Of a DNA stretch of 64,000 nucleotides, positions 1 to 49,655 are shown one piece after another (the stretch's first letter is position 1; each line of letters starts with the position of its first letter). The translations under genes and the position numbers were made by a program. Under the pieces are notes generated by a model. The model searched no databases and was not told the origin of the DNA. It saw only the letters and a list, made by a program, of their open reading frames with translations. The DNA is taken from assembly GCA_016748015.1 (NCBI GenBank), contig JAAOMT010000657.1, positions 248,001-312,000 on the forward strand. The letters are read 5' to 3'. This stretch comes from Geosiphon pyriformis uo1. Lineage: Eukaryota > Fungi > Glomeromycota.

Positions 1-453
1 ATAGCTCTTGATCATGGCTATTGATGAGATACTAACTTACCAAATTGCCTTGGCTTATTTTCATCATTATTTTCTTTATTTTATTTCTTTCTTTCTTTAA
101 TTCTGTTGTGCCTACTAATTGATTGAGGATTAAAAGCACTGAGTTATTGACGTCACAGATAGCCTGATAAAAGACCCAGAAATAAGAGTAGATTTATATA
201 TATTATTAGTTAGCTTACCAGAAGAGCACGACTGCCAGAATAAATCTGGCCACCAAGCTGAGAAAGAAATTGGAAAACAACTGACAACAAATAACGAATT
301 GCCACACTATCAGATCTCTGTCCATTATACAAAAGACTCTATCAAAACCTTCAGATACAACATTTACAGAATATCATTGATGGAAATAGCTTTTGAGCAC
401 CAAGTTACGAGTTTGTTATTTGACTTGAGACTCCAAATAATTCAACTGTAATA
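1..453 (+). repeat. 5' LTR of element A (3' part)
   Basis: Direct repeat of 9277-9728; ends ctgtaata (ancestral GTAACA) followed by the PBS. Confidence 0.96.
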
Positions 454-472
454 TTTGATGCTCCTTGTAAGG
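454..472 (+). promoter_or_regulatory. Primer-binding site; consensus over A/E/F/H is TTTGGTGCTCCTTGTGAGG (3' end like tRNA-Ile(UAU) or elongator tRNA-Met)
   Basis: Immediately 3' of LTR in A (454), E (40007), H (60301), F (57221, minus); complement CCUCAC-AAGGAGC-A-CCA fits T-stem, acceptor stem and CCA; tRNA identity is inference. Confidence 0.85.
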
Positions 473-515
473 TATAATCCTACAGAGAACCAGCACCAAC
501 AACACCAAACCAAAA

Positions 516-2640
516 GTGGTAGAATCAGAAATAATAGGGACAAATTATTTAAGATTTGCAAAATTTTTATTTCAACAGTACAGCCAGCAGCTAGGCCTAA
601 ACAACAATCATTACCCAGCAGAATCAGCTTTCAACTTCTATGTCAATGAAAGAATCACAGATTTCCTAGGAAGACCAGTTGACATTGAATCAGCAAGAAA
701 AAATTTTTATTCAGAACTAATCCAACATACCAACTTATCCAGAAATTACAGCTTTGCACCCATTATCAGAAAAATCAACCAAGAAATTGAAAGATATACA
801 CAAAAGACATTCCCTATTACTTACCAAAACAAAGGCAAAGGAAAACTACAGACACCAGCAATAACACCCAAAGAAATACAAATTCCTAACTGGAAAAAAC
901 AAAGAATCGAATTTCTGATATACTCATTATACCATCACACACCTGAAAGTACCATCAACATCACATTAGCAGATGCGTCTACCAGTACAAAGACGCCACT
1001 AGCAAGAATCACATTTCAGAGTAAACAAAAGAAAAACGAACTATTAGAAGCATACAGCAATTATTTTGAAGGATTTAAATCAAGATCACTAACACCATCA
1101 GGATTTCAATTACTGCCTCATCAGCCAGATTTTGGAACTGTTAGTCCTTGGGAAATTACTGAATCAGAAGAAAAAAAAGATGAGGATCAGAAATTTAATT
1201 ACCAAAACCCAATCCTAGAAGACCCGAACATTCAAACTCAGCAACATTTAAAAAATTCAGAAATTGAAACTCTGAATATTTGAACCCTGCCAAATCAAAG
1301 AAATTAAAACCCCGAGTTAATTCATCAGCAAAATCTATCTCCAGTTATTGTTATTAATCAACCACCAATTAAGCCGATCAGTAAGCCAATTCAACTATTT
1401 CAAGTACTACTCCAACAACTGTTACCTTTTCAACAACCACTTCAACAGCCACCACAACCACCCAACTTAGATCCAATGGCCTATGCACCAATCACAAAAC
1501 TTGACAACTTTACCGGCGAAGAGGATGATGCTCAAGTATAGCTGAATGATATAGAAAAAGCCATTGCAGCCAATGGATGGAATGATGCCCAGACAATGCA
1601 AGCCATTCTCTACTTTTTCAAGGATACTGCCAATTTATGGTACCAGAGCTTGATTAATAAACCACAAGATTTTGATGCATTCAAAGAGGAATTCCTAAGA
1701 TACTTCAGCAACAATAACAGCATCAATTGCCTAGTCAACATGTTCACCACCATGAAACAAAGAGAAACTAAAGCAGTCACTACTTACTTGGAATGCTTCC
1801 ATCAAAATCTGCGCCAAATTCAAGCAATTGATGCCAACTATTTCACAGCATTACAGATCCTTAACCAGTTTATCCATGGCCTGCGCAGCAGCATCCTGCA
1901 ACATGTATGTCTGTTGCATCCAGGTATACTTCAAGATGCAGTCACACATGCCAAAGATTTTGAATCTGCTGAGTCAGAGGCCAACCACGCCCAAGCCATT
2001 AATCTAGTAATGAACAGATCATCTGAATTGGATTCCAAATTGGAAAAGTTCAGTGAATCAATTAATAAGAGATTAGAAGGATACTTAGCTGACAATCATG
2101 CCATTTATCAGCCTCCACAATGATGCAATAATCATAGAAACTCTAATCGTGTCCAAAATCAACCACATCCATCTTCATCAACCAATCAACAGTGGCAACA
2201 GGAAATGCATATTTGCCACTATTGTGGTAAACAAGGACATATTCAAATCGATTGCTGTCAGCATTTAAATAACAAATGATCAAGAAATCAATATCAAAAC
2301 CCTGATCGTTGGTTCTCAACTCTGAATCATCAATCAAACTCAACACAATATCAAACTACTTACCTGCCAATGATGCAGCAATCAATTTATCAACCACCAG
2401 TATATTAAGCTCTAATTTATCAACCAATGGCCCCAATTTATCAGCCACAGCCACAGGTAATATATCAACTGCAGTCACCAACAATTTATCAACCCCAAAT
2501 GATTCAGACCCCACCACAAAACTTACCAGCCAGCGAAGTCCAAAAACCGAGAATTACACAGCAAAACTGAAGATTGTCGATAGTAGTTCATTAGCCAATT
2601 CCCTGTTCCTTCAGTCAAACAAGATCTTATCAATAAAATT
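516..2640 (+). pseudogene. gag: gag of element A: N-terminal extension (516-1475), capsid from ATG 1476, CCHC knuckle, IYQP-repeat tail
   Basis: MAYAPITKLDNFTGEEDDAQ...WYQSLINKPQDFDAFKEEFL capsid-like region; CHYCGKQGHIQIDC at 2214-2255; one frame continuing into PR. Confidence 0.9.
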
Positions 2641-2869
2641 TGGGTGCTGGGAATTCCCAAAACCTGAATTCCCAGGACTATTTAAGTCTCCTGGTTACTC
2701 CAGAAGATGCCTCACCCAGCAACCAAGAACCCACTCAAAACCACCAAACACGTACCAGCAATATTCTACCAACAATAGTCACCAACGACAAATTACTGAA
2801 CGCCATTTTTCCATTCAAACTCAAGGAACTATCAACCATGCCATTATTGAGTGGAGCTACACTGGAAGA

Positions 2870-3258
2870 AAAGCCAATTACCGCCATGTATACTGATGTA
2901 AAAATTGATGGCCATCTCATCAAACTAATTCTTGACAGTGGTTCAGCAGGCAGCATCATTACATGACAACTTATGGATCAATTAGGTGACTGAGTTGATT
3001 GAGCTGCTAGCACCAGAATCATCACAGCTGATGAAGTGACCAAGACTCCAATCGGCGAAATCAATGACTTATCAATTGAAATTAACGGCATCATAGTACC
3101 AATCAAAATACTCGTTATGGAAGCCACCCAATAGCAAGCTCTAGTAGGTAATGACTAGCTGTCTAAGACAAACACCACTTTGGATTAGAATACACAAGAG
3201 CTTCAACTCAGCCAGAATGGGCGACACATGCAAGTACCAGCAATATGTGGCCACTTCA
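2870..3258 (+). pseudogene. Retropepsin aspartic protease of A
   Basis: LILDSGSAGSII and ALVGND(W)L motifs. Confidence 0.92.
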
Positions 3259-3598
3259 AGACTACCAACACCACGGCATCATTAATCAACTTCGAGGAAG
3301 AAAAACCAAAACCTATCTGGGAAGCCTACCAAGTATTGTGGGCTGATGAAGAGCACAACGAGCTGCCACCAATACTCTCTTAGGATGACAACAGGAAAGG
3401 GAAGCAAACAAACGAACTTACCTGGGAAACCGACAATCTAACTTGAACCGACAACAAACAAGAAGAAGCTTTCAGTTGGGAATGGAACAAAAATAAGAGA
3501 AAAAAAAAAGAAAAAAAAAAGGAATGCCACCAACTGCTGTCATTTATAACTCCTACACCCACCACACTTCACAACAATCCAATTATTGACAGCCAAGG

Positions 3599-4230
3599 CT
3601 TGTATGTGTCAATTGCAGCAAGAAACTGTCATCAATGAGCACATGCTGTAGCGACGATGAGGAATACCACACTGCAACAAAGTTCTACTGTCATCCATGC
3701 TTACTTGAATGCTTTGGATGACCAAAGCAGCAAGGAAAATGGGATAACCAACTTTGTTTCGCTTGTGGGGAGACCCTGCTAGATAAAAGAATGTGAAATA
3801 ACATTCCAGGATGTAGAGGAATGTGCGATGCATTGTGTCAATACACAATTCTAATAAGTGACTGGGTAAAGAAAAGAACACCAATAGAAGCAGCCTGGAG
3901 AAGAGCCGTGCAGTGACTGGACAGTTGTCCACATGATGATGATAAAATTTGGAGAATGGCAATTAGCAAAATAGAAGGAGCAACACCCGAAGAGATCAGA
4001 GAAATCAAAAACAACTCATCAGAACCCATCAAGCTTGACTGGAATGCAAAGCCAGTCATAAATTTTCTGGAACCAAAAAAGTTCCATGAATACTACCAAA
4101 ACTTGGCACCCACTAGAGAAGAGCAAGAACAATAGCTAGCACAGTTGAATACAAGACTGTGTCGCCATTGTTTAATTCCCAGTAACTTTGAATATTGTGA
4201 CAATTGTAATCTTATTTACAATCCACCACC
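3599..4230 (+). pseudogene. Cys-rich multi-zinc-finger-like domain of unknown family inside pol (A)
   Basis: CVNC..YCHPC..CFAC..CDALC..helical..CRHC..CDNC; homologs in B, D, E, F, G, H. Confidence 0.75.
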
Positions 4231-4489
4231 ATGCATAATCTACACAATCCCCGAAGAGAAAGAACCAATCAGCAGCTGTGCATCAGAGTCGGAATCACCA
4301 CTCAATCCCAATTCAAACCCTGACAATAATGATGATAAGAATAACAGTTTCAGCTCTGTTCAAAATGGCAATGACAATGACAACAATATCAACTCAGATT
4401 CAAACTCCAACTCAAACTATGAACAATATATCATGCTTCCTGATCTCACCAAGGAACAAAAACTGAAATGGTTCAGCAATAATAATGAA

Positions 4490-4890
4490 GGTATTATGCC
4501 AGAATGTGCGCACAATACTGATGCAGAATTTGATCTGAGATATTCGGGAACAGAAGCCATCAAATTAGAACCACATACGTGCACCTGTATTAATTTGAAA
4601 ATAGCACTGGAAATTCCAGCAACAACAATGGTTCAATTAGCATCTAGGAGTAGTTTAGCAAAAAGAGGGATTAATATAAGAGGAGAAATAATTGACGCAG
4701 AATATGTAGGAAATATCATCACTATGCTACAAAATAACTCAAACAAGGCCTATATAATAGAGCCGAACGAAAAGATAGCACAGGCAATATTCTTATCTTT
4801 GGTTAAGATAGCTCAATTAGTACCAGTAGGAAACAGAGAAGAGTTAGAAATAACAGCAAGAGGGATACAGGGATTTGGGTCAATGGGTAG
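4490..4890 (+). pseudogene. dut: Trimeric dUTPase domain in pol of A
   Basis: All five motifs: DA(G)FDL, ASRSSLA, (G)IIDA(G)YVG, EKIAQ, RGIQGFGS(T)G. Confidence 0.93.
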
Positions 4891-5459
4891 AATAGATGTA
4901 TCAGTTAATATAGCAGAAGAAAAAATTGTTGGCCAAGAAAAAATTATCTCAACCGGTCAAGCTATTTCCATTCCACCATATAGCCAGTATATGCTAACAA
5001 TAGAAAGAAAGGAAAAAGAGCAAGAACAGATTTTTGAAGCTAAAGCAAGCCTTTGTAAATTAGGAGAAATAAGATTGATCAATCTCTACATACTAGCCAA
5101 AAGCTATAGCCACATAAAAATTCCCATCTACAACAACACTGGCAATGTCATCAACATACCAGAAGGAACCACCATCAGATATTTAACCACAGAAATAGAA
5201 GACCAACCATCAAACCCCATTCCAGACTTTTTACAACTTTGTGAATATATTGACATCACATCACAAACAATCTATAGACAAGACAAATGTTATTTACTCC
5301 AACCAAAACAATTGGAACAAATGAACATAGGAAACTTAGATCCACTTCAACATATACAGCTCAAGATGTTGCTCAACAATTTCAAGAACATTTTTGCCAG
5401 TGAAAACGAGTTTGACCAAACTGACATCATCCAGCATCAGATCAAGACTGGAGATGCAA

Positions 5460-6721
5460 TGCCAATCAAACAAAGAGCATACAGAGTGCCACCAGCCAGC
5501 CACGAGATCATTCGTTAAGAGATAAACCAAATGCTTAACAATGGGTTAATTCAACCATCAATGAGCCCATGGTCATTACCAGTAGTACTTGTTTGTAAAA
5601 AGAATGGAAAAATCCGATTTTGTGTGGACTACAGGAAACTCAACAGTGTAACTTGTAGAGACAGCTATCCAACTCCATGAATACAGGAATTATTTGATGC
5701 TTTCGGTGAAAACAAATGGTTCTCAACATTAGACTTAGACAGTGGTTATTGGCAAGTAGCCATGAATCCAGCTGACAAAAAGAAGACAGCATTCACCACT
5801 AGAAAAGGGAATTTTGAATTTGAAGTAATGCCATTTGGCTTAACCAATGCCCCAGCCACTTTCCAATGGCTAATGGAAATTGTTTATACTGGCTTATTGT
5901 GGAAATCAGTAGTTGTATACTTGGATGACACCAATGTATTCTCAAAAACATTTGATGATCACTTTCATCATCTTCAACAAGTGTTTGAAAGGTTAAGAAG
6001 AGCAAGACTAAAGTTAAATGCAACAAAGTGCTTCTTTGGCAAAACAGAACTAAAATTTTTGGGACACATAATCAGTAAAGACAGCATCAAAATGGATCCA
6101 GAGAAAATAGAGATAGTAAAAAACTTTCCAGTACCAACCAATGTAACTGAATTGAAATCATTCTTGGGATTCACAAGCTATTATCGATGCTTTATAAAGA
6201 ATTTTTTAAAGATAGCTCAACCGCTCAATAATTTGCAAACCAAGAATACCAAATATGAATGGACAGAAAGTCAACAAGAAGCTTTTGATATTCTGAAAAG
6301 AAAGCTTATTCAAGCTCCAGTACTGATCTACCCAGATTACAACAAACCATTTATCATTACTACTGATGTATCAGGCCAAGCATTGGGAGCAGTACTATCT
6401 CAAAAGAGACCAAATGGCAGAGTACATCCAGTAGCATATGCCAGCCAAGGTCTAACACCAGCCGAAAAGAACTATGGAACACCAGAACTAGAACATTTAG
6501 CAATTTATTGGGCAGTCATGAAGTGGAACAAATACTTGAGCCAAAAGTTTGATATATACACAGATTATAAAGAGTTAACATCACTTTAAAAGCAAGAATT
6601 TGATGACGGCCATCAATTCAGATGGAAAATGGCACTATTACGATATACTTATGCTATACACTATAAGAAAGGAAAAGACAACAGAAATGCTGATGATTTG
6701 TCGTAAATAAGACAAATTTAA
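5460..6721 (+). pseudogene. Reverse transcriptase + RNase H of A
   Basis: FCVDYRKLN, MPFGLTNAPATF, YLDD, TDVSGQALGAVLSQ, ELEHLA, YTD. Confidence 0.97.
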
Positions 6722-6781
6722 GAACATTTCAACCCAAAAATATAACAAAACCAGAACAATACCAACAAAAAATAACAAAAG

Positions 6782-8164
6782 ATGAACATACAAAAATATC
6801 AACAACTCTAACATTATATAAACACTCAACAGTTCAAAGAGAATTTATTTCAAATGGAACGAAAGAGGATCAAACAACAATCAAAATATTTTATCACTTA
6901 CCAAAATATACTTTATCAGAAAAATAGGAGGGATCTAGATCAGCCAACCAGAGTAATTACAGAGCCAGAGAAAGAGACAATATTATTCAACATGCACTCA
7001 AATCCAACAGCCAGACACTTTCACAAAGAAGCAACCATGAAAAGAACCAGAAAAAGATACTATTGGTCATCAATGTATCCAGACATTATCCAATATGTTC
7101 AAAATTGTAATGCTTGTCAGCGAAGAGGAGGAACAAGACCCAGTGAACCATTAAGACCAATCAAAGTGAGACAACCATTTGACCGGATTGGAATTGATTT
7201 AGTTGGACCATTAACAATCACCAGCAGAGGAAACAGATATATAGTAGTAGTCATGGACTATCTCACTAAATGGCCAGAGGCGAAAGCAATTCAAAGAGTG
7301 AATGCAAAATTTGTTGCCAAATTTGTTCATCAAGATTTAATTTGTCAACACAGATGTCCAAAAGAATTATTATCAGACCAAGGAACTCATTTTGTGAACA
7401 GAACATTAACAGAATTGAGCCAAAGATTCGGAATTAAGAGACTATTATCATCACCATACCATCCACAAACCAACAGATTAGTCAAAAAATTCAACAGAAC
7501 ATTGTGTAAAGCAATTGCCAAACTCAGCCAAAAAAACCAGGACAAATGAGATTTGTTCATACCATTAGTATTATTTGCTTATTAGACAATGAAGCAAGAT
7601 ACTACACAAGCAACACCATTTGAATTAGTATATGGTAGAACAGCAACATTACCAGTAGAGAGAGAAATTAGTACATATCAAGCTGAACCAATAACAGAAG
7701 AGAATTTTCAAGAAACATTGCTGAGAAGAACATATGAATTAATAGAAACATTAGAAAACAAACGAAAAAGAGCAGCTGATAATATTCAAAAGTTACAAAA
7801 AAAACAGAAAGAAAGACACAATAGTCAACTACTAGACAAACCAGTTGAATTCAAGATTAGAGACAAAGTACTTTTATATTGTACTAAAGCAGAAAAACAA
7901 TGGAGTGGAAAATTTGACCCCAAATGGGATGGACCATTTCACATAGAAGAAATTCTAGGAAATGGAGCTTACAAATTAAGACTGGATAACAAAATTTTAA
8001 CCAAAGCAGCACATAAAGATTGACTGAAATCATACCACAACATTACACTATCATCTATCAGTAATATTCCACAATTAGAAGTACAGAGAATACTAGTCCA
8101 ACCAGATGAAATTCCACGAAATCTGGAACCAATAATTATTATCGACAACAACATGTTAAATTGA
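6782..8164 (+). pseudogene. Integrase of A (HHCC, DDE, GPF/Y; no chromodomain), starting at its own ATG
   Basis: HSNPTARH..CNAC, GIDLVGP, SDQG, FNRTL, KWDGPFHI. Confidence 0.95.
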
Positions 8165-8217
8165 TTCAGCAAAAGAATATATAAAAACATGGTAAATGCG
8201 ACAAAAAATATCAGAAA

Positions 8218-8847
8218 ATAGAAATTACAGACAACATTCACTCACTAGCACAACAACTTTTTCAATTGATTCAACACCAGGAAATAAAAATTACAATCAA
8301 TCAACAAACCATTTGATATCAAAATCCTAGAAAGACATTGCAACCCAGAACACAAAAGAAAACTGAAAATATGGTGGACAAAATCATTGCGAAAGTAAAA
8401 TTAACAATAAGAGAGTTGACAAAAGAGACACTATATTAAGAGTTGACTAAAGAAACTTGAAATTAGTGGATACAACAATTTTCAAGAAACTATTGTTATT
8501 TTTATTTGGGACAACATATAAATATCCAGAATCTATTTACGGATAAAACAAAGCAATTATTCGACAAAAGAATATTACAACAATTAGAACATTTTGTGGG
8601 AAAGAACAACTTATCCACACAGGCCTGAACCATATACTGAATATATACAGCATTTCAGGATAGACCAGAAATATTACTCAACAAAGCAATAGATATGGTT
8701 ACCAGTAATCAATTGGAAAAGATCACCAATGCTCAATTTGAAAAATTACAGACCCAAATAACACAAGTAATTCTCAAAAACAAAATCCAGGAAATACTTC
8801 AAGAGGGGGAATTAAATGAGTTGGATTTCAACAGAGCTCAATATTAA
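8218..8847 (+). pseudogene. ORF3 of element A, ~209 aa, unknown function
   Basis: Codon-level conservation with E 52955-53586; protein similarity to B 15298-16032; ends DFNRAQY*. Confidence 0.8.
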
Positions 8848-8860
8848 AAGGAGGGAATAA
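8846..8860 (+). promoter_or_regulatory. Polypurine tract of A
   Basis: aaaaggagggaataa directly before the LTR start TGTTAC. Confidence 0.9.
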
Positions 8861-9728
8861 TGTTACTCATAGAAATATAGGAAATATATTAGCATAATTA
8901 GTAGCCAATCAGAAGTAGGCATAGTAAATGTGGAATTTCAGGATTCCTCTCAGGAATTGCAGGATTTCAGGAATTTTAGAATTCCCCAATGAGGAATTGC
9001 AGGATTCCAGAATTCCAGGATTCCTCTTAAAGAAATTGCAGAATTCCAGGAATTCCAGGATTCCTGTCATGAAGAATTAAGGAATTAAAGAATCTCAATT
9101 ATGTATATATAGCAGCAGGATTAGAAGCTGAAAAGAGGGACCTCTCAGTTTAGATTTAATCTAAGCAATCTTTCAATTCCCAATTATCAAATAAATAATT
9201 ATTTTATATCTCAATCCACTCTCCACTATTAACACTTCATGTTGATAGTAATTGATACTTAACCACACTGAAACAATAGCTCTTGATCATGACTATTGAT
9301 GAGATACTAACTTACCAAATTGCCTTGGCTTATTTTCATCATTATTTTCTTTATTTTATTTATTTATTTCTTTAATTCTGTTGTGCCTACTAATTGATTG
9401 AGAATTAAAAGCACTGAGTTATTGACATCACGGATAGCCTGGTAAAAGACCCAAAAATAAGGGTAGATTTATATATATTATCAGTTAGCTTACCAGAAAG
9501 GCATGACTGCCAGAATAAATCTGGCCACCAAGCTGAGAAAAAAATTGGAAAACAACTGACAACAAATGATGAATTGCTGCACTATCGGATCTCTGTTCAT
9601 TATACAAAAGACTTCATCAAAACCTTCAGATACAACATTTGCAGAATATCATCGATGGAAATAGCTTTTGAGCACCAAATTACAGGTTTGTTATTTGACT
9701 TGAGACTCCAAATAATTCAACTGTAACA
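8861..9728 (+). repeat. 3' LTR of A (868 bp, TGTTAC...GTAACA)
   Basis: Terminal inverted repeats; TATA-like tatatata ~9105; AATAAA ~9190. Confidence 0.96.
8931..9096 (+). repeat. U3 array of ~9-bp GGAATTCCA/GGATTCCA units
   Basis: Visible tandem degenerate palindromes; also in E, F, G, H LTRs. Confidence 0.85.
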
Positions 9729-16928: not shown

Positions 16929-19900
16929 CTGTATAATAAAAAGAAGCTAAAACACAAATAAGTAACTTGCTAAATACTCTACTTGAATAAATTTGACTAA
17001 GACATATAATATTGCAAAAAAGCAAATTATTAAAACACAAATACTTTTTTTAGACTTATTATCAAATAATAGTAGAATCTTTTTAAACCAAAACAACCTA
17101 ATTATTAGTAATTTTACTTTAATTAAACACAATAATAAACTTGAACAACTATTCTGCCTTAATAAAAATTTTGGATAAAAAACAATATTCATTAAACTAC
17201 ACTTAACAACAAAGAAAATATTTGCACAAACAATCAAATTTTTATTTAATTTATCAAAATTAACTATACAAAAGAAACAGAAAAAATCTTAACTGCTATT
17301 AAAAAATCATTAGATTTAAAAAAAGAAATTGTAATTTACAATATATACACTAATTTATTAGTTAAATACTTTGGAAAAACAAAAACAATTTAAAAAATCT
17401 TAGTTTGTTATTATTGGTCTACTTTGGAAAAAAATATTGTTGAGTATATAAAAATCTGTAATATCTGTTTAAAAAAAAAAATTCAACTGCAAAAAAAATA
17501 TATATCTAACAGAATTGATATAAATATTATAAAATTCTTAAAAATAACTTTTGATAACTACAAATATATTATTACAGCTACTAATTATTTTATAATAGAA
17601 ACAAAAGTTATCTTAAACTAAACAACAGTCTTTATTGCTAATTTTATTTATAAAGATATTATTTATCATTATAACTGTTTTAAAAAACTTTTGTTTGATA
17701 GAAAAAAAGCTTTTCTTAGTATACTGATTAAAAAACTTTGTAAAAAGATAAAAATATGTCATAAACTCTTTTTTTTATTACTCTTAAACAAATGTTTTAA
17801 TAAAATGTTTTAATAAAATCTTATGTAAAACTTTAGCCAAAGCCAGTAAAGAAACAAATCTATAAGACAAAGTATTGTTTTCAGCTTTATTTGTTTATAA
17901 AACTGTAAATTATAACATAACAAATTATAAATTCTTTTATCTGTTCTATAAACAAATAGCAATTTTATCAATAAAAATTAATATTAAGACAATATATTTT
18001 AAAAAAATCATAATAAAATATTATAAGAATATTTTACAAAAAAAGCTTAATACAATTCTTGACTTTTTAATAAAAACATAAATAATTGTTTTTGAAAAAA
18101 TAAAACAGTTTTAAAAAAAGCTTAAAAAAAAATTTATAAAACACTTTTCTTAAGTATTAATAACTTAAAAATTTAAGAATATCTTACTAAAAAGACATAA
18201 CTGTTAAAATAAACTGGCTATCATACTAAAAAAAAATTCCCAGAAGAAACCATTAATTAAATCTCTGTTTATTATACAAAAAACTCAACCAAAATCTTTA
18301 AACTCCAAAATCTTCAGAAATTACCAATATTTCCAGCTATTGAGCACCAAGTTATGAGTTTGTTATTTGTTTTAACATTCTAAATAATTACTTGTAACAC
18401 TGGTAATAGTTTTTTTTGGATTAATAACAGTATAAGTTTTATTGTTATTAGTTATAGTGGTTTGTTTTTTAATAGTTAGAATAACATTTGAATAATTTTT
18501 GGTCTAATATTTATAAAAAATATAGAAAGTATTTTAAATGTTTTAATTTAAAAAATAATTATTTATGTTAATTAAAAATACTTTTGTTTTGAAAATAGTG
18601 TATTTATTTATAACTAATTTTTGTTGATTATTTAGATTAGTATTACCACAACAAGTAACTAATTAAGTTATTTATAATATTTTTTAAGTTTTGTACTATG
18701 AACAGAGCAATTATTAAAAATTGTTTAATATTAATCTTATAGAATATAAAAATTATTATTCAGAAATTTGTTTACTAAAAAGAGTTATTTCTACCAACTA
18801 AAAAATTTATTTTTATAGACATTGTCTTTATTTAAATAATATTTTAAAACTACTTTTGTTTCCAGGTTTTTTACCAGACTATTCTTGATGTTAAATATTC
18901 AGCACTTAATACTTTTAATCAATTAGTAAACAACAAAGAAACAAAATAAAAAAATAATAAAAAATAATAAAAAATTAGTATTTTATCAATAACTATAATC
19001 AAGAACTATTGTTCTAATGTAATTAAGAATTGAATTCTAACAACATGGAGTGTTGATAATGTAGAATAAATTAATATTTCTTTAATTAAATAATAATAAC
19101 ATGAATTTAATGATAATAGATAATTTTATTAATATGGAAATAATTTCATTTTAATTTATAAAAAACTATTTTTTAAAAAAAGAGATATTGTTGTTCTAAA
19201 CTCTATTGAATTCTTTTAGAATTACTTTTTCTGTTTTTAATATTCTTGCTATATATACATAATTTATATTATACAAAATTCCTTGAAATCTTTTAATTTT
19301 TATGAGTAATACCAGAAAAGAAAAAATTGATAATAAAATAGATAAATATCTGCTTAAAAACATAACAACAGTAATACTTCTATTCTCTATTATAATTTAA
19401 AAAACAATTCAAAAAATTCTGCTTATAAACAAAAACTTGTTATATAAAAAACAATTAAAGCTCTATGGTTATTTTGGTAAAATCATAGAAAATATAAAGC
19501 TTATAAAAAAACAACTTCAAAAATACAAGTAAAAATTTTGGACATTATATGATTAAATATTTCAAAAGTTTTGATCATTGCTAAAAAAGCCAAAACTTTT
19601 ATACAAAAATTTGGTTTCTTAGATACAAAACTTATTTTATTTTAAATATTATATATTTTATTTACAAAAAATTTTATATTATGGTTAAAACTTATAGTTT
19701 TTATTAGTTATTATATGTATTAGCCAATAATGTCATATAATTAGCCATTCTATTTTTAGATAGTAATTATTAATAATTTAACTGTTAATTTGGTTATTAA
19801 TTATTTTCAATAATTATATAAGTAATAAGTCTTTTAGCTATGAAAAAACATAATCATAATTAAAAAAAAAAATAATAATTATTATTATCTCAATTTTTTT

Positions 19901-20325
19901 TATTGCTTATTTCTCTTTTTGTACTTTTAAGTATCTGAATATTTTAAAATAAAAAATTACTTGTTGGCAATTATCTATTTTTTTTTAATTTGTATAATTA
20001 TAATATTTAAAAATTATTGAATAATCATAATTAAAGAAATATATTTAATACTTAATATTAAATTCTAAGAACACTAATATAAGACATAAAATTATACTAA
20101 TATATTATTATTTATTAACAATATAAACTATTTCTTTATCTTTAAATTCTTTAGTTATCTTTTAAAAAGAATAGCAATTAAGATATTTTATAAAATTAAT
20201 CTCATATATTAAATTCATATTTATTTAATTTGCTCTTTAAAATTAAATTTTCTTTAATCTTTTTTATTACTCTACAATATTGTTTTTTTTTGTTATCCAT
20301 TAATTTGTTATTTTAATTTATAATA
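16929..20325 (+). mobile_element. Element C1: extremely AT-shifted Ty3/gypsy remnant (RH end, integrase, ORF3, LTR 19677-20325)
   Basis: Colinear with the reverse complement of 33213-36030; integrase traces (CNIC, RIDINII..). Confidence 0.85.
18166..19311 (-). mobile_element. Solo LTR (G-like) in C1 with 4-bp TSD CCAG, split by a later inversion (U5 piece 18166-18399 now +, remainder 18853-19311 -)
   Basis: LTR termini cttgtaaca (18399) and gagtaata (19311) flanked by ctgg/ccag; U3 repeat block deleted. Confidence 0.8.
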
Positions 20326-22335
20326 TTATTATTTGTTATTATAATTGCCCTAGAAAACTTTTATTTAATAAAAAAAAAACTTTTCTTAATACATTAGTTG
20401 AAGAACTTTTTTAAAAAATAAGAATATATTATAAATTTTTTTTTATACCACTTTTAAACAAATAGCTTAGTGAAATATTTCAATAAAATATTATATAAAA
20501 TCTTGGCCAAAACTAGTAAAAAAACAAATTTATAAAACAAAATATTGTTTTTAACTTTGTTTACTTATAAAACTGTAAATCATAATATAAAAGTTATAAA
20601 CTTTTTTATTTGTTCTATAGAAAAATAGCAATATTATCAATAAAAATTGATATTAAAACAATATTTTTTAAAAAAATTACAATAAAAAAATACAAAGATA
20701 TCTTGCAAAGAAAACTTATTACAATTCTTAATTTACTAATAAAAGCACAAATAATTATTTTTGAAAAAATAAAACAGTTTTAAAAAACCCTAAGAAAAAG
20801 AAAACATACAAAATATTTTTTTTAAATATAGATAACCTAGTTTTAAAATATTACTTAAGCAGAGATAATATTTATAGAAATAAGTTTTTTAATAAGTAAA
20901 AAAAACTTTTTATAGTTAACAAAGTTTTAAACAATAATTTTTATATCTTATAAGATTAATATAGAACAATTTTTAATAATTAATTTATATATAGTACATG
21001 ACTCAAAAAATATTACAAATGACCTGATTGGTTATTTGTTATAGTAATACTAATTCAAATAATCAACAAAAATTAGTTATAAATAAATGAATTATTTCTA
21101 AAACAGTAATGTTTTTAATTAATATAAATAATTATTTTTTGGATTAAAACATTTAAAATATTTAAAATATTTTTTATAAGTATTGGATCAAAAATTATCT
21201 AAATGCTATTTTAATCATTAAAAAACAAACTACTATAAATAATAATAATAAAACATTTATTATTATTAAACCAAAAAAAACTACTATTAAAAAAGAAAAA
21301 ACTGGTAACAAAACAGCTAAATATATATTTAAATACATAATTTTAACAATATTATTATCTTTCAATATACTTAGAAAAATAATTAAAAAAATTTTGTCTA
21401 TAAACAAAAACTTATTATATAAAAAACAATTAAAACTCTATGATTAACTTGATGAATTATAAAAAATATAAAGCTCTTAAAGAAAACATTTTCAAAAATA
21501 CAAACAAAAATTTTGGGAATTATATAATTAGATATTTTAAAAATTTTAATTATTGTCAAAAAAGTCAAAATTTTTATACAAAGTTTTGTCTCAAATTTTG
21601 TATATTTTATTAACAAAAAACTTTATCAAACTAGTTAGTTTTAAGTTAAATAAAACTCTTCAATTAAAATACTTTATAAATAATTTAATTTTACTAAAAT
21701 TCAATTTTCTTGGAAAAAATAATGTTATAGTTGAAAGTCATAGTTTTTATTAATTATCACATGTATTACTCACTAATATTATATAATTAACCACTTTATT
21801 TTTAAAAAATAATTAATAATCTGATTATTAATTTAATTAATAACTTGATTGTTAACTTAATTACTAATCTAATTATTGACTATTTTAAATAGTTATATAA
21901 ATGATGTATTTTTTAATTTTAAAAAAATATGTTTATATATATAAGTCATATATAAATCAAAATAATAAAAATTATTTCTTAAAATATCTAATCTTTTTTA
22001 TTTTACTTATTTCTCTTTTTTAATTTTTTTCAAATATCTGAAAATTTTTGTGATAAAAAATTATTTGTTAATATTCATCTATAATTGTTAGTTTTAAAAA
22101 TTATTGAATTATTAAAAAATATAATTAATATCTAATATTGAATTTTAAAAGTGCTAATATAAAGCATAAAATTATATTAATATGTTATTTTTATTAATAA
22201 TATAGATTATTTCTTTATCTTTAAATTTTTTTGTTATTTTTTAAAATAGCAATTGAGATATTTATAAAATTGATTTTATATATTGAATTTATATTAATTC
22301 AATTTGTTCTTTGAAGTTAAATTTTTCTTTAATTA
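20326..22335 (+). mobile_element. Element C2: second C-family remnant (integrase C-half, ORF3, PPT, LTR from 21723, truncated)
   Basis: Parallels 17660-18160 and the reverse complement of C3. Confidence 0.8.
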
Positions 22336-23786: not shown

Positions 23787-26700
23787 TCATACACTCACCT
23801 TCATACGTTTAACATTGGCTGCAAGCTTGGCTTCATCGTTGGATTTTCTAGCGCTACTCTTTCCTTGAATAGTATCAAGACTGAGACCAGGTATCTGAGG
23901 TGACAAGAGCTCCATTTTTAACTTCTGTCTCATGCCCCCTGCGGCGCTTCCAACCAGGTCTTCGTCAATGGTAATTTGAACAATTATTTTATCAAATAAC
24001 TTGATGCTCACGTTGTTAGTAGATGAATCAAGACTATTATTGCGAGGATTGTAAACAACAGGGGGGGCAGAAGCAGCGAGTGCGGTCTTCGTTGGAGATG
24101 AGTAAACAATACCTTCAATTCCATATCTGTGAAAAAATTCGAGTAGTTTTTTAGGATGGTGATTAAGAATACGGCAACAAGCCTTTCTTACCGTGGAACT
24201 AGTACAATAAATCCATTCTTGAGTATTCTCGTAACAAAGCCTTCTTCCTGTTCAATTTTATCCTTGAAAAAGATGTTTGTATGCAATTCAACTGAACTTC
24301 GAGCAGCCATTTGCGCCATTCTGTGACGATAATTTAACCCTAATAATAAATAAAGAAGCTAATTAATTGCTTTAAGATAATACAGCTTAAGCAGGAAGTT
24401 TGGATTGCAATTTACCCTCGCATAATGATTGCATCTTATGGATATCTGTAAGCTCGCTTCCATAAACTGAATTAGGTTCGATACAAGCGGCCAATAATCT
24501 GTGAACAATAACATCTGAAAGACAGTTGAGGAGTGAGTAGAGGGAAATTTAGTAAAAGGATATTTGTTATGGGTAATATTATAAAATTTTCAAAAAATAC
24601 CAGCATATCTTCTAATTGGTGATGTGAAATGTGTGTATATGTCCGACGCAAGGCCATAATGCCGAAAATTGGATTGGACGGTATTTCCGGCACAAAAATA
24701 GATAGCTTGCATCATACATCGCGTAGTCATTATTCGAAGAAGTTTATTGAAATACGGCTCATGCGGTAGCTAGAAATAATGAAAATGCTTTAAATGAAAT
24801 TGATCTGTTTAAAACTTTCATCATAGAAATTTAGAAGTTTAAAGGTTATACCTCAGCTTGGTTCAATGAATCAGCGAGGCTTTTCGAAGTGTCAAATTTT
24901 AGTGTAAAACCAAATGGAGCAATTGCTTTAGATAAGTTCTCCAAATTTGCGTTTGCGGGTGGTGGATGTCGTCTAATATAAATATTTTTTAGAAAATATT
25001 GAAATTTTAAAATTCGAAATTTTGATATACCTTAACAAGGAAGAACTCGGAAATTTGGAAAAAATTTTTTCGGCGACAGAGATGTTGGCAAGTAACATAA
25101 ACTCTTCTACAAGGGCATTTGTTTCCTTCAATTCCTTCAATTCTGTACATAATGAAGCATAATATCTGCAGAAGGGGAGGTTACTATTTGAAAAGTGATG
25201 ATCTTAAAGGATACCAACATCTACGGGATCCTGGGAATCATTTTCCAGTTGAAAACGAACTTCTGGGCTGGCCAGCGTCAGAGCACCACGTTCTAGACGT
25301 TTTGCGTGAAGCTTCTTTGCAAGTTGATTCAAAACTCTAATCCCATTAGTGAGGTCATCTTGTAATCGACTAATTAAAATTCAAAAATCTGGTTATGGAT
25401 ATCAATTTTCAAGACAACTATTATCTTCATATTGAAAAAAATCCAACCGGTCGTCGATACGCCTCTGAGCTTCCTCGTATGTCAGTGAAGCTTTAGACGC
25501 AATAACACTCTTGGTGAAATTTACACTGATAATCTCAGCCTCAGGATTAATTTCCTTTCAGAAAAGTATTATAGCCTAATTTAATGAAAATGATATTTAT
25601 ATGAAGGAAAAGCTAATCTTTTATTTACTTACCCACAAGCAAGAAAAGGCTAATCGATCAACATTCTCTTTAAGGGAACAAAGATCTACCGAATATGACG
25701 AACAGAAAAACCTCAGTAACAGGCAATTATCGAGAAATAACACTAAATTGATATTTCGCACCACTTACTGCTTCCCAACAAAAAAGGAATCATGTCAACA
25801 CGTTTGTTAACCAGATAAACGGTCGTTCCGCGATTTGCAGCTTCTTGATCAATGGCAGTTCCTGGCTTAAGGAAGTGAGTAACATCGGCAATGTCTTTGA
25901 AGATAACATAAATGTTATTTAGAAGTGTAAAGGTCTCAGAGAAAGTAACTGAATATTAAATGGTTAAAAATTCTCAAAACTTACGGACACCGACTTCAAA
26001 ATTACCATTAGGAAGCAGTCGGACGTGCAACGCATCATCAATATCCGTACAGCCTATAGTCTTGAAATTAGGATAATATTTATAGAACTATTATATGAAT
26101 ATACTTTGTTTTCATACCAGGTGGATCAATACTACAGATATTTAGATTCCGGAAATCTGCCCTGTTGCGTATATCGTCCTCAGTCATCTTCCAATTAGCA
26201 CCCTCGAAAGGCAGATCGTTCAAAACTTGCAGTGAAAAATCTTGATGCGGTACATCGTGTTCTAATAGCAAAACCTCAGTTTCAGTAGCCTTATCACCAG
26301 CCGCACCGAGAGCACGAACAAAATGCCCTTGCGGAAACCTAGTGATAACAAATACCAAATAGTTAATAAAGTAACCATTGAACTAATGAATGTAGTGTTT
26401 TTCATATAGCACCTGGAATCTTTTGGCCAAGAATCAATTGCGACTAGTATTCGTTGGCCCATTATATTTTGAGCCTGTCGCGTTCTAATTCGGATGAAAG
26501 GGATGCGCCTATCCATTGTAACGACTAACACATTTTCAGACATCTTTGAAGATATAGATCCTTGGACAGATTGTTTCTTGATAAAGCCACAATATCTAAT
26601 TTACAGTTAAGGTGATAAAATAACCAACAAGTATAGATGTGACAATCCTGCAAAAATAATTAGGATACGGTCTCCATTTTCTTTTGATGATTCCAACCAC

Positions 26701-28513: not shown

Positions 28514-29848
28514 TTACATTAATTTAGGATGCCAAAAAGGACGAGGTGATAATTTTCCTTGAAATACTACCTTCCCATCTGTATCTTTAGCTTCTGAAGC
28601 ATCAACAAATTGAAAATCCATTTCACCGGTTTTATCACTTATGGTAACATGCAGGAATCCAGGTTTTACTATTCCCCAATCTTTTCCCTTGCACCCCTCA
28701 CTTAATCTACTTCCACTGCCAGAAATAAAATGTGCCATTGGCGAAAAATCTTGAGGCCCCTTATATTCTAAAACATGATTATGTCCAGCAAAATATGCCG
28801 TAACACGATGTTTTTCAAAAAGTGGTTGAAGTCGATACATATAATGATTATCAATACATGAACCAATTAATGGATGATGCCCTATAAATTGAACTGTATG
28901 TTAAAAAGATTTAATAAAAAGGAACTATAACTTTGTGAAAGAAGAAACTCACCAACAACTAAAATCCATTTAGCATCTTGATTTTCGATCAGTTTTTGTT
29001 CAATCCATTTTATCTTTTCTTCAACAGCTGATTCGAGGTTCCAACCCATCATTAAAAAATTTTCCTTCATTACTTTTTTCGATTGATCAAGTTTATTATA
29101 ATCATAAAAGAAAAGATCAGTATCAATATGTATCCAAGCGATCTTAGTCCGGGTTGGTCCAATTACAGAGGTTCGAACGTAATATAAGGATGGAAGAAAA
29201 AAACGGGGGTTTTTGTTGAGACTGTAATCAATTTGCGCAGTAATATTATTATACCTTTTGAGTAATAAAAGTGAGTTAAAATTTTTTCTGATTTCAAATT
29301 TGATTTATAAAATATGACTAACCAATCATGGTTCCCAGCGACACTATACCATGGTATAGTTGATAACTTGCCCTTGTACACCTCCAGCCAAATAGTTTTC
29401 CATTTTTCATCCTCAACACTTTTAACACCTTGATAATCATAAACCCCACCCTCATAAAAATTATCTTTTTGAATCGATAAATTGAAATGGATAACAGGAT
29501 TAGTTTAAAATTTCAAACAAGGGCAATTTGCTTAATTTCTAAGAAATAGGCTTAACTAAAACTATGCTACTAATACGGACCGCCAACATTGATGATAAAT
29601 TTGCTATTATATTTGTCTGCATACTTTTCCATGGCGTTTGCCACTAATCGTTGTAATTCACCATTTTTGTCACCTTTTAAACCCAAATCCCCCCAATCAC
29701 CCACCACCAAGAAATCTAAACTTTCGTCTTCATAATGCTCTTTATAAACTTTTGAAGAAGGTTGAAGTATTAAAATGTCGCTCAAGCTTCTATTGAGTAA
29801 GAAGATAAAGAGGTAAAGGAACAATGAGTTTTTATAAAAGTAAAACAT
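28514..29848 (-). CDS. Purple/tartrate-resistant acid phosphatase-like metallophosphoesterase, multi-exon, probably secreted
   Basis: VGDWG, GDNFY, GNHD, VVGHHP, AGHNH motifs; hydrophobic N-terminus. Confidence 0.9.
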
Positions 29849-30891: not shown

Positions 30892-32702
30892 TCAATTTTG
30901 TAATCTTACTATTAAATTTTCGTAATTTGAAACAAGGCCAGTTCGAGTGTCATACGTTTGCATAAAACTGATCGGATTCGCACCTTGAATATCTACGCAG
31001 GGATTATTTCCTCCATTGTGGATATTTGTCGTATTCAATTGGTTCCATTGCGAAGAGCCAATAGCGTGGCAATCCAAATGAATTTTCGAATCGTTCTCAA
31101 TAATGGAAACTTTGGAAGATTTTAAATCAATTCCATTATTCCAAAATTGATTATCCTTGACATTTCCCCAAAACGTGGAGTTCAGATTTTGCCCTCGAAG
31201 ATATTGAGCTCCAGTTTGAGGGGCATATTCTGACTCATTGATTGTATGATGGATATCAAAGGAGAACGTACCCGATTGATCTGTTGGGTTGGATATGAAT
31301 TCTGCATCTCCATATTCTGAAATCTGCGAAAAAGAGTAAAAGTTGGCTGGTTCAGAAAATCTGCGTTTTACCTAAAAAATTTATAAACATTTGAAAAAAG
31401 TTAAAAGTTTTATTTAATGTCTCATGTTTTTTATAAGGATTACATTAATAATGATAAGTCACAAACCTGAGCAGGTACTGCGAGAAAATGGTGCATATTG
31501 GAATCATTATAAAAAGTTTGATCTTCGATAATTGTGGATAACGCTTGTTGCTGTCGATCAGTTTCGGAGACAATCTTTTCGCCCATAAAAGAGGTCATCA
31601 ATTCAGGTGGACAAGAATTGCGACGAGTATGATTAATCGAGGTGGAATCAAATGGATCGGATTGATCATCAAGGAGGGTATCTTCACTAATGACAGATCG
31701 AACGGTAGTTGGACTATAGTTATTATAACCATCAAAATAATCCGGAATTGTGTGATTAGATTGCGGGGTTCCAATCGACATAGATTGTGAATCTGTGATT
31801 GATATTTCAGTAGAAGTCTCGAGTGACATAGAGAGTAAGCTCCCGATGGGCATAATTTGGGTTTGATCGATTGAATCATAAACTTCGTTCGCTGATAGAT
31901 AGTCTGGGTGTGGAGATCGTTCAGTAATTGGTAAAGCAACCATATGTTGTTGCACCCAAGCTTCTACTTGAGGAAATTGACGTTGTTGTACCATAAACTG
32001 AAATTCTTCGTTTGTACCAGGAATTTGAATTGGTTCAATATTCGGTTTTGAACGAAGCGAGGTTTTGGGCTTTTGATGAGAACTCTCAGTATCCTCTGAA
32101 ACAATTTGTTCTACCAATACTGGTTTGTGCTCTTCTGAATAAAATGGATCATCATACGAACAAGAAAACTCCTGTTCGTCCTTAATTTGAGAGCAACTCT
32201 TTTGAGGATCAATCAAAGATGACTCATCTTCACAAGAGTCAACTTTTAAGATGTTATTCAAGCAATCATCAGTCGAACAGTTTTGAGCCAAATTATGATT
32301 TGAGAACGGATCTTCTGGCTCTTGTTCAAAAGGGCTTTCAGGCGTTAGACCTTCCTGAACGTCCGATTGATCCCCATCAAAATATTTGATTTTTTTTGCT
32401 TTAGCACGACGGTTTTGAAACCACACCTGGACACCCCTAGGTGTCATATTCAATTTTTGTGCTAATAACTGTCGCACGGAAGAGTGAGGTTTGGGATTTT
32501 CGGTGAAGGTTTTTTCCAACGATTTAAGTTGGTAACGAGACGTCCTACGACGGTGTTTAACCTCAAACGGGTTATAAAATGTCGGTTTGAATTCGCCATG
32601 AGGGGACTGAGGAAAGGCGTCAAACATTTGCGGGACTGGATGAAGTTGGTTAGAAGCGGAAAGTGTCTGCCCTTCTAAAAAACCTTTTTCCTTATGGTTC
32701 AT
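30892..32702 (-). CDS. Homeodomain transcription factor (Hom2-like), ~571 aa; exons 32702-31467 and 31371-30892
   Basis: FYNPFEVKHRRRTS...RGVQVWFQNRRAK; a GT..AG intron 31466-31372 keeps the frame to TGA 30892. Confidence 0.9.
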
Positions 32703-33212
32703 TTGTAGTCTCCTCTCTTCACGCTGGTAGCTCTAGGCTAGAAACGGTAGTGCCAACAAAAGGAAGGAAATGTTTTTTTCAAGGAGAAAAGTTTCGAAGA
32801 AAGATTCACCAATATCCTTTGATCGGCACATTACATTCTATCAATAAAACCTATCTTGAACGGAATATTGTAATGCGTAGTGCCAAAATAATTGGATTTC
32901 TTAAATTATATGATTTTATTGCCATTTGTTCATACAGTCAAGCTTTTTTTTAGTGCACATTCTTGCTAATTACACATCCTAATTTCAGGACTCTAAATAC
33001 ACACCTTCTGTATTTTATATGCGCAAAAGATTTTGCGGTCCCGATATTTACATTAATAGACTAATGCAATATATAAAAATTAATACATGTAATAAGATTT
33101 AATAAAAGCCTATATAATAAGCAGGATTAATTTACAGCTTTGTAATTAACTTAAAGATAAAGCTGTAGTTTAAAAAATTTTTAAAATGAAACTTATTTTG
33201 TTTTTAACATAT

Positions 33213-33857
33213 TGTTACGGATTGGAGTAACAAGCTAACAGATACCAAGAGAGAACAGGATTGTAGGGTGATGGAATTAATCAAAGAGGATTCAACTTCA
33301 AGGAGCGAATTGAATGAGTATGGATTCAATGTGCGAGATCAGTCTCATAAAATATCTCAGTCGCTATTCTTTTCAAAGGATAATTGGGGAATCTGAAGGT
33401 AGAGAGATTAGTCCATACTGTCAACAAATGATAACACACTGGTATAATTCTATGCCTCATGTCGGTGCTCTTAGAATTTGATATCAGATATCAAATGTAC
33501 TCTTCAGTCACGTTTTATTCAATAATCTTCAAATGCTACAATTATATGAGTCAGGAAAAGGGTAGGTAAATGCCAACAAGTAATTTTTTATCCCAAGATG
33601 TTTGGATACTTGAAGGTAAGGAAAAGGGAATAAGTGATAGGAGAAGAATTGAGATGATAGTTGTTATTTTATTTATTCTTGATTAATTGCTACATATTTT
33701 TCTGCAGTTAAGAGACTCATCACTTATATAGCTATTAAAAGTGGTTAGGTTATTGATCAGGTCAATGATCACTATCTAAAAATAGAGTGGTTAATTATGT
33801 GACATCAGTAGTTAATACATGTGATAATTAATAAAACTATGGTTTTTAACTGTAATA
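33213..33857 (-). repeat. 3' LTR of C3 (~645 bp), least mutated C-family LTR
   Basis: tgttacgg...ctgtaata; homologous to 19677-20325 and 21723-22335. Confidence 0.88.
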
Positions 33858-40000: not shown

Positions 40001-40555
40001 ATAACATTTGGTGCTTCTTGTGAGGTATAATCTTACAGAGAACCAGTACCAATAACAATTACTCAAAAGTGGCAGAATTAGAAATAAGAGGAACAAATCA
40101 TTTAGGATTTGCCAAATTCTTATTTCAACACTACTGTAAACATCTGGAATTAACCAACAACCAATTATTAATGGAATTTGCTTTTAACTTTTATGTTAAC
40201 AAAAGAATTAAATATTTTTTAGGAGAACCAGTAAATACAAAATCAGCAAAAAAAAATTTCTACAGCAAATTAATTCAATATACTAGCTTATTATTAGACC
40301 ACAACTTTGCACTGATCATTACTAAAATCGACAGAGAAATTAAAAATCACACCCAACAAATATTTTCTATTATTTATGCAAAAAAAAGCAAAGAAAAACT
40401 ACAAATACTAGCAGAAACTCCAAAGCAAATACAATTATCTATTTGAAAAAAACAAAGAGTCAATTTACTAGCTAATTCATAATATCATCACACTCTTAGA
40501 AGTATTATCAATATAACATTAACAGGCACATTCACAGCAAATACAATAATACTAT

Positions 40556-48900: not shown

Positions 48901-49259
48901 AAAAAGCAAGAACAATGTTTAGAACTGTTTAATACTCACCTATGTGACCACTGTTTAATTTTGTGTGATTTTTAATATTGTAATAATTGTGATCTTATTT
49001 ACAATCCATTATCATGCATGATCTACATAATTCCAGAAGAAAAAAAACCAATTAGCAGCTGCAAAATGGAATCAGAATTGCTATTCAATCGTGATTCAAA
49101 CTTCAACAATGATGACAATAACAATGATTTTAGCTCTACTCAAAATGGCAATAACAACAGTAACAATTCAAATTCCGATTTAAACTTAAAACAATATATT
49201 GCACTTTTTGATCTTTTCAAGAAGCAAAAACTCAAATAGTTTAGTGATAATAATGAAGA

Positions 49260-49655
49260 TATTATGTCAGAATGTGCACATAATACTGATACAGAGTTTA
49301 ATTTGAGATATCCCAAAAAGAATGTTATTAAATTGGAATCATATTCATGTATCTGTATAGATCTAAAATTAGTACTGAAAATTCCAGCAACAACAATGGT
49401 TCAATTAGCATCTAGATTAAATCTAGTGAAAAAGAGAATCAACATCAGAAGAGAAATAATTAATGCAGAATATATAGAAAATATTATTGCAATACTACAA
49501 AATAATTCAGAAAAACCATATATTATTGAACTAAATAAAAAGATAGCACAGACAATATTTTTATCTCTGGTAAAAATAGCTCAATTAGTATTAATGAGAA
49601 CAAAGAAGGAATTAGAAATCACAGCTAAAAGAAAAAATAAATTTGGATCCATGAG
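49260..49655 (+). pseudogene. dut: dUTPase domain of E
   Basis: Homologous to 4490-4890. Confidence 0.85.

Follow-up and report, generated by a model that had tools for sequence, protein, structure and literature searches.

Where does the translation of gag begin in the LTR retrotransposons of Geosiphon pyriformis? The question is raised by a window of 64,000 nucleotides (the whole stretch of DNA analyzed here; G. pyriformis uo1, assembly GCA_016748015.1, contig JAAOMT010000657.1, positions 248,001 to 312,000 of the forward strand), in which several element copies carry a GTG codon shortly behind the 5' LTR and, more than 200 codons farther on in the same frame, an ATG at the start of the capsid. 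A first-pass annotation of this DNA proposed that the two codons start a minor extended form and a major capsid-first form of Gag. We followed up the proposal in the copies of the window and in the stored gene models of the organism.

Composition of the window

Self-comparison of the window showed nested, decayed LTR elements. Copies A, E, F, and H form one broad family and copy D belongs to a second, and all five are broken. The copies are decayed Ty3/gypsy elements of G. pyriformis, an assignment that rests on their LTRs and on the order of their domains. LTRs with TG...CA ends flank the coding region in both A and D, and the extension protein of A, encoded ahead of the capsid, is identical over its length to one G. 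pyriformis gene model.

Copy A (positions 1 to 9728, plus strand) opens with the 3' part (U5 side) of its 5' LTR (1 to 453), which is 94% identical to positions 9276 to 9728 of the 3' LTR (8861 to 9728; TGTTA...TAACA, 868 bp, with a TATA-like box 625 nt from the LTR end). Its Pfam matches follow the order capsid, dUTPase, reverse transcriptase, RNase H, and integrase, and the protease is recognized by motif alone. The capsid (Retrotrans_gag/Ty3_capsid; 1476 to 2120) gave the Ty3-type matches PF03732 (E 6e-10) and PF19259 (E 1.5e-7); matches to Arc capsids were weak (E 0.005). The aspartic protease region (2637 to 2966) lies in the frame of the GTG and contains the motif LILDSGS, with no Pfam match. 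It is followed by a frame with dUTPase (4136 to 5518; PF00692, E 2e-19), by reverse transcriptase and RNase H (5681 to 6589; PF00078, PF17919, and PF17917), and by integrase (6782 to 8023). A 196-codon open frame (2306 to 2896), used by some gene models, overlaps the Q/P-rich tail of gag in another frame.

The RNase H frame of A ends in a stop, and integrase opens at its own ATG at 6782, behind an A/C-rich spacer that is much like the leader ahead of the GTG (6704 to 6784). The same arrangement of stop and new ATG recurs near 51500 and 13850, that is, in all three copies aligned. A separate integrase start fits unusual translation of one RNA and is no proof of the mechanism proposed for Gag. 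Farther downstream, A (8020 to 8860) and the copy ending at 54528 (52755 to 53600) have in common a conserved stretch of approximately 800 nt that separates integrase from the 3' LTR; it holds long, broken frames and possibly an extra 3' ORF.

Copy D (40556 to 45939), whose 5' LTR (44962 to 45939, minus strand) is 94% identical to its 3' LTR (40556 to 41532), sits inside the gag extension of an A-type element (39034 to 54528) with a probable target duplication of 4 bp, ATAG, at its ends. E and the copy resuming at 45940 are probably the two parts of a single element that D interrupts. Copy A is itself inserted in the gag region of another element, which continues from 9729. Within LTR pairs, nearly all decay is C>T/G>A, and CpG sites change at about four times the rate of other sites, which is consistent with loss driven by methylation; the GC content of older copies goes down to 18 to 25%. 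The window also holds, among the repeats, a host homeodomain gene (31440 to 32732, minus strand; PF00046, E 6e-19), more host-like exons (23787 to 24251 and 28514 to 29304), and, without relation to the gypsy copies, a repeat family of very high AT content with units of about 1.3 to 1.5 kb in both orientations (16929 to 21831 and 33228 to 36019).

The codon at the GTG site

In copy A, the likely start of an extended Gag is the GTG at 516 to 518, in the context AAA-GTG-G. The GTG that had been described behind AAAA in A, E (40069 to 40071, plus strand), F (57155 to 57157, minus strand), and D (44913 to 44915, minus strand) was present in each of them, and H has, likewise behind AAAA, GTA (60363 to 60365, plus strand), likely a decayed GTG. 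These codons were found 62, 62, 64, 46, and 62 nt past the LTR end in A, E, F, D, and H, respectively, which is slightly more than the 45 to 60 nt first given. The codon precedes an invariant Leu by 11 codons in family A and by 9 in family D.

The site was tabulated across copies through the stored Geosiphon gene-model proteins, which give predicted residues rather than codons; the five window copies were read as DNA. A motif-anchored count gave 156 matches among 397 proteins for family A and 88 among 399 for family D, the rest being without the motif. In family A, the residue was Val in 128, Met in 21, and Leu in 7 matches; in family D, it was Val in 64, Met in 19, Leu in 4, and Asn in 1. Val dominates both families and, over the two together, outnumbers Met about 5:1; the possibility that most copies carry ATG at this site was not borne out. 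The Met count is itself inflated, since 27 of the 40 Met cases are the first residue of a gene model, and the Leu rows are best explained by the splice junctions that the gene models use. Ile was found at the site in neither family, although other Val columns do decay to Ile. Because GTA, GTC, or GTT would give Ile by G>A, its consistent absence indicates that the Val codon was GTG.

Substitutions between paired LTRs (1 to 453 with 9276 to 9728, and 40565 to 41532 with 44971 to 45939) were transitions in 79 of 83 cases and hit 13 to 16% of ApG and 50 to 62% of CpG sites; protein columns likewise drift in the G>A/C>T direction. Met was commonest in the AAY-GTG context, likely a CpG (3/8), and rare after Lys inside a model (3/173). 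FastTree trees of the domain, computed without the start codon and poorly resolved, placed 9 changes for the 10 Met of 88 rows (shuffled mean, 9.6) and, in a second tree, 16 changes for the 17 Met of 74 rows (shuffled mean, 15.5). This scatter of the Met copies argues for GTG as the ancestral codon and for ATG as the outcome of G>A decay, in agreement with the earlier view that GTG is unlikely to derive from ATG where mutation runs from G to A. We take the ATG copies to be decay products. Among the 40 differences listed, of 299 between the window and contigs of one DNA run, none fell at 516, 641, or 647; a further comparison gave no G>A at 516, but it gave none at sites known to vary either and so says nothing about the codon.

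A different history would make the GTG a dead ATG, fixed in the founder copies, with the extension untranslated during amplification. Every copy seen is decayed and nonautonomous lineages can amplify, as such a history would have it. Yet two families that share 19% identity, and every subfamily, would all need an identical A>G change that runs counter to the mutation bias, and the extension holds its frame across subfamily indels and keeps a foldable domain. We consider this history largely refuted, with hardly any probability left to it.

Non-AUG initiation normally needs a strong context, with A at -3 and G at +4, according to the relevant part of PMC3542737. Val is preceded by Lys, Thr, or Asn in 126 of 128 family A models and by Lys in 60 of 64 family D models. 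The codons of these three residues all place A at -3, and this A is thus kept while the codon itself changes. The residue after the site is mostly Ala or one of its decay products, giving G at +4; copy D itself has A at +4, and the majority of its family has G. Among the other in-frame near-cognate codons, a single one combines A at -3 with G at +4, namely an ATA that lies past the GTG, at +18, in A.

Leader and reading frame upstream of the GTG

The primer-binding site of A (454 to 472, assigned by position directly after the LTR) has a TGG-type start, as it does in all five copies. Behind it stands an A/C-rich, presumably noncoding leader (473 to 515), the length of which is not kept to a multiple of three. 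A stop in frame with the GTG lies in the primer-binding site of A (468 to 470); three of the four A-type window copies have such a stop, and F has one just past the site. Among 133 family A models, the leader is read in one frame by about 100 and in the other two frames by about 23, one row being assigned to the wrong one of these two, with 10 unclear, and one clade shares a leader frame shift. Family D models use two frames (8 and 5 rows), and the D copy of the window is in the third. Since the leader enters the codon in all three frames, and given the in-frame stops, an unspliced start encoded in the LTR, which the first-pass annotation had named among the threats to its proposal, is disfavored. 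A 102-codon frame in the LTR of A (143 to 451) was rejected as an upstream start: it is out of frame with the GTG in A and does not extend past the LTR end, and where it has ATG, Thr codons occur as alternatives.

Within the extension, the gaps in pairwise comparisons with A were multiples of three in 9 of 10 cases, with one 33-nt gap counted three times. The frame of the leader is free and that of the extension is held; thus, coding constraint begins at the GTG.

Splicing might join an AUG in the LTR to gag; the acceptor would coincide with the GTG or closely precede it, and the GTG would then be an ordinary Val codon. Each family has one candidate LTR AUG, CAG acceptors occur 15 to 35 nt upstream of the GTG in both families, and AAAG|TG contains an AG acceptor that some gene models use, namely those of the Leu rows. 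The details fit this arrangement poorly, however. GT follows the candidate LTR AUG in only two of seven LTRs, the stretch from CAG to GTG shifts frame at the clade level, and an Asn-Val/Met subfamily (8 models), with AAY-GTG, has no AG yet keeps A at -3. Splicing would also leave unexplained the presence of GTG in both families, a codon that occurs once in the 960 nt of the A extension. We judge a spliced start to be quite unlikely. Initiation at the GUG is, from the codon, its context, and its frame, very probable.

A possible hairpin occupies 528 to 573, its start being 13 nt from that of the GTG. In E the hairpin is strong (z = -3.56), in A it takes the same shape but is weak (z = -0.61), and H, F, and D lack it. 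Significant in one of five copies, without compensatory change, and in a region picked after looking, the hairpin is weak support for the start. In family A, the leader (488 to 495) complements the first bases of the primer-binding site (455 to 462), and pairing is predicted in all four copies; the complement was not seen in D. Such pairing could hide the primer-binding site or tie priming to translation. The primer-binding sites of the two families (454 to 472, and 44943 to 44961 on the minus strand) share their first 8 to 9 bases and then differ; the site does not look like one for the initiator tRNA-Met.

The N-terminal extension

The extension had been credited with a conserved domain on the basis of the motifs YVNERITDFL and YIENRINNYL, and both motifs are present and align. 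The first 100 or so residues (516 to 815 in A) form a predicted four-helix domain common to the two families, the versions of which are homologous at 19% identity (hhalign probability, 93%; E 3e-7) and need no gap in the alignment of their first three helices. AlphaFold2, run with both families, returned a confident helical domain (pLDDT of about 90 for residues 11 to 100) with a low-confidence tail after residue 100, whereas family A alone gave a poor model (pLDDT, 52). As a correction to the first-pass annotation, the frame of the extension is not open in the window copies: A has two stops (1281 and 1305) and D has four. At the stop positions of A, other copies carry Gln, Arg, or Pro.

Structure searches with the model of family A alone were empty, and Foldseek with the two-family model gave no match at E <= 0.001. 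The best structural Z score, 7.2, was to unrelated helical proteins. Pfam has no family for the extension, and no relatives outside Geosiphon were found in metagenome contigs, prokaryote genomes, or viral contigs. The homologs named among the stronger matches, which are the ones listed (120, 120, and 29; 46, 69, and 61 weaker ones stood outside the listings), were all from Geosiphon, as were 10 of 10 representatives looked up. Phage clusters of the ESM Atlas (0.93 to 0.94) were rejected as relatives because they share too few features.

Between the domain and the capsid lies a predicted disordered linker (816 to 1475 in A), in which a basic KGKGK motif is followed by S/T/P-rich, acidic, and Q/P-rich stretches. 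It measures 125 to 220 aa across families and has no family-conserved Met. No long hydrophobic run was apparent in the translations of the extension. A matrix-like role in targeting or scaffolding is a guess made from the position of the extension.

The capsid ATG

The ATG at the capsid start lies in frame with the GTG, 320 codons past it in A (1476 to 1478) and 226 in D (44235 to 44237, minus strand), where it had been placed before. In both families, it is the first in-frame ATG that is conserved in the family, and neither family has a majority-Met column ahead of the capsid. The residue at the capsid start is Met in 66 of the 81 matches of the A type and in 91 of the 102 of the D type; most of the others have Ile, a decay product of Met. 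In both families this Met stands 6 to 7 residues before the same capsid Lys, in flanks that are unrelated between the families, one being Q/P-rich and the other acidic. The capsid AUG of family A usually has C at -3.

In retroviral Gag, the matrix and a spacer precede the capsid. The Geosiphon elements could be built in the same way, with the GUG as their only start, throttling one long polyprotein from which the protease removes the extension; the capsid Met would then be kept for structure or processing. That layout speaks for the idea, as does the imperfect context of the A-family capsid AUG, and sole GUG starts are known, DAP5 being the case treated in part of PMC5666671. The shared spacing of the Met from the Lys amid unrelated flanks counts against it, and so does the fact that this is the first conserved Met after 226 to 320 codons without one. 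We regard the GUG as very unlikely to be the only start.

AUG content between the two proposed starts

As described before, A has no in-frame Met between the two codons and four ATG triplets (640, 646, 973, and 1180), and D has two (44728 and 44380), all of them in frame +1 at NAT|G junctions. The further claim that AUG is depleted held against the capsid part of the same elements, was weak against shuffled sequences, and failed against a synonymous null. There were 4 ATGs in 957 nt of extension versus 26 in 822 nt downstream in A (composition-adjusted P = 6e-5), 2 in 675 nt versus 17 in 786 nt in D (P = 0.005), and 3 in 675 nt versus 15 in 766 nt in H (P = 0.017). The pooled counts were 10 in 2574 nt of extension and 59 in 2406 nt downstream, with A and H being related, and antisense CAT was not much reduced (42 versus 50). 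Dinucleotide shuffles gave P values of 0.012 (A) and 0.13 (D), and codon shuffles gave 0.14 (A) and 0.07 (D). Synonymous resampling with the protein fixed showed no depletion, with 4 ATGs against 3.8 expected in A and 2 against 2.2 in D. In present copies the ATG count equals the synonymous expectation, and the depletion could therefore be a by-product of amino acid composition.

The ATG triplets had been explained as products of ACG>ATG decay. Because CpG decay would refill such sites, ancestry was assessed by how often codons that follow Tyr, His, Asn, or Asp (NAY|G junctions) had undergone G>A. All six such junctions in the A extension had CpG-like G>A rates (27 to 51%), compared with 7 of 18 capsid junctions under 20% (Mann-Whitney P = 0.024 for the A extension versus the capsid). 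The junction behind the ATG at 640, a triplet present in four of four window copies, is decayed in 35 of 125 rows, scattered, as opposed to 7 of 120 for a control Val. The codons at 640 were likely TAC-GTC ancestrally, and the CpG origin is supported indirectly. In the D extension, two of four junctions had low rates (P = 0.10 for D alone), and the Asp-Gly junction at codons 28 and 29 is decayed in 10 of 81 rows. At this junction, most D copies may have a genuine AUG, out of frame and about 85 nt past the GTG. For family A, the rates support an ancestral extension without AUG.

Within the LTRs, most sites past the TATA-like box that read ATG in some of 8 LTR copies read ACG or ACA in others. 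A true upstream AUG may exist at column 566, where five of seven copies have ATG and two have ATA; its frame is 7 codons long, and the base at -3 is C or T. Both LTRs of D carry an ATG, 570 nt ahead of the LTR end. The extension, for its part, is AUG-poor, not AUG-free.

Such counts bear on whether both forms of Gag need come from one RNA. The GUG might start the long form alone, with capsid-first Gag translated from a separate, shorter or spliced RNA, as p22 of Ty1 is from Ty1i in the account given in part of PMC5408680. Besides this precedent, the synonymous null without depletion favors a separate RNA, and a scan of 680 to 960 nt is demanding when, as in family D, it probably has to pass an AUG that is out of frame. 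A separate RNA does not, however, predict the missing Met and the CpG-type junctions of the A extension. The product of Ty1 is, moreover, a truncated capsid, whereas the AUG here is just ahead of the whole capsid domain. A separate RNA for capsid-first Gag seems to us unlikely.

Discussion

The reading that we prefer is that two in-frame Gag isoforms are made from one RNA by leaky scanning from the GUG to the capsid AUG, and from the sequence record we give it a probability of roughly 0.65. Transcription would start about 600 nt before the 5' LTR end, and in the leader the scanning ribosome would meet no more than one upstream ORF, short and in weak context. Some ribosomes would initiate at AAA-GUG-G and produce the long form, consisting of the four-helix domain, the linker of 125 to 220 aa, and the capsid. 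The remaining ribosomes would scan through 680 to 960 nt of ancestrally AUG-poor RNA and then start at the capsid AUG. Typical efficiencies of GUG are 2 to 30% in the part of PMC3542737 that covers them, GUG ranks after CUG as a start (PMC5666671, in part), and near-cognate starts function in filamentous fungi (PMC5487733, in part). These values make it plausible, by analogy, that the long form would be the minor and the capsid-first form the major product.

An in-frame near-cognate codon that is conserved, in strong context, and ahead of the first AUG, and the lack of an in-frame AUG between these two codons, are features shared with cases of the MLV glyco-Gag and PEG10 kind. MLV glyco-Gag, as treated in part of PMC3542737, combines non-AUG and AUG forms of Gag, likewise proposed here, and the likeness is confined to the start codon. 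In MLV, the start is CUG, the extension carries an ER signal peptide, and the AUG form starts at matrix, whereas the Geosiphon elements are fungal LTR retrotransposons with GUG, an extension of 226 to 320 aa with a predicted four-helix domain, and an AUG at the capsid. Human PEG10 is a gag derived from Ty3/gypsy with a non-AUG and a downstream in-frame AUG start, shown by mutagenesis, the non-AUG start being thought the major one; it is, however, a domesticated host gene that uses CUG and gains just 34 residues (PMC2800197, in part).

Two fungal elements offer further comparisons. PosPlaTy3-5, a fungal Ty3/gypsy element, has a dUTPase between protease and reverse transcriptase and the order reverse transcriptase, RNase H, and integrase, as in A, and the available part of PMC2864245 mentions no non-AUG Gag start. 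Yeast Ty1 is an LTR retrotransposon in which a short Gag form, p22, arises from an internal AUG; it differs in belonging to Ty1/copia, in using a separate internal transcript and AUG starts only, and in that its product is a truncated restriction factor (PMC5408680, in part).

ORF I-II-III of rice tungro bacilliform virus, as outlined in part of PMC3542737, belongs to a reverse-transcribing genome with a non-AUG first start and leaky scanning through about 895 nt that are almost AUG-free, a length comparable to the 680 to 960 nt of the Geosiphon elements. In the virus, in contrast, the start is AUU, reached via ribosome shunting, and separate ORFs rather than in-frame isoforms are made. A bolder conjecture, of which we are doubtful, is that the whole genomic RNA is run as in a plant pararetrovirus, with a GUG-started product bearing a new four-helix targeting domain, leaky scanning to the capsid, and a separately started integrase. 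In a mosaic particle, the GUG would then determine what proportion of the subunits bears the domain, which would amount to a matrix-like layer evolved independently in a fungal retrotransposon.

A non-AUG Gag extension is already documented for a gammaretrovirus and for a domesticated gene. In the full-text literature, with most subscription journals outside its scope, we found no report of a mobile LTR retrotransposon whose gag has a non-AUG start, and the available part of PMC5009743 contains nothing on non-AUG gag starts. The present case comes from one genome, in which all copies seen are decayed. AUG-based annotation would mis-start such genes, and most stored models enter the frame via spliced or LTR-derived N-termini. 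If the preferred reading is true, the Geosiphon elements would have a way to set the ratio of two Gag forms, an early-branching fungus would supply a naturally occurring GUG start that deep divergence has left in place, and the Gag of these elements would carry a new folded N-terminal domain.
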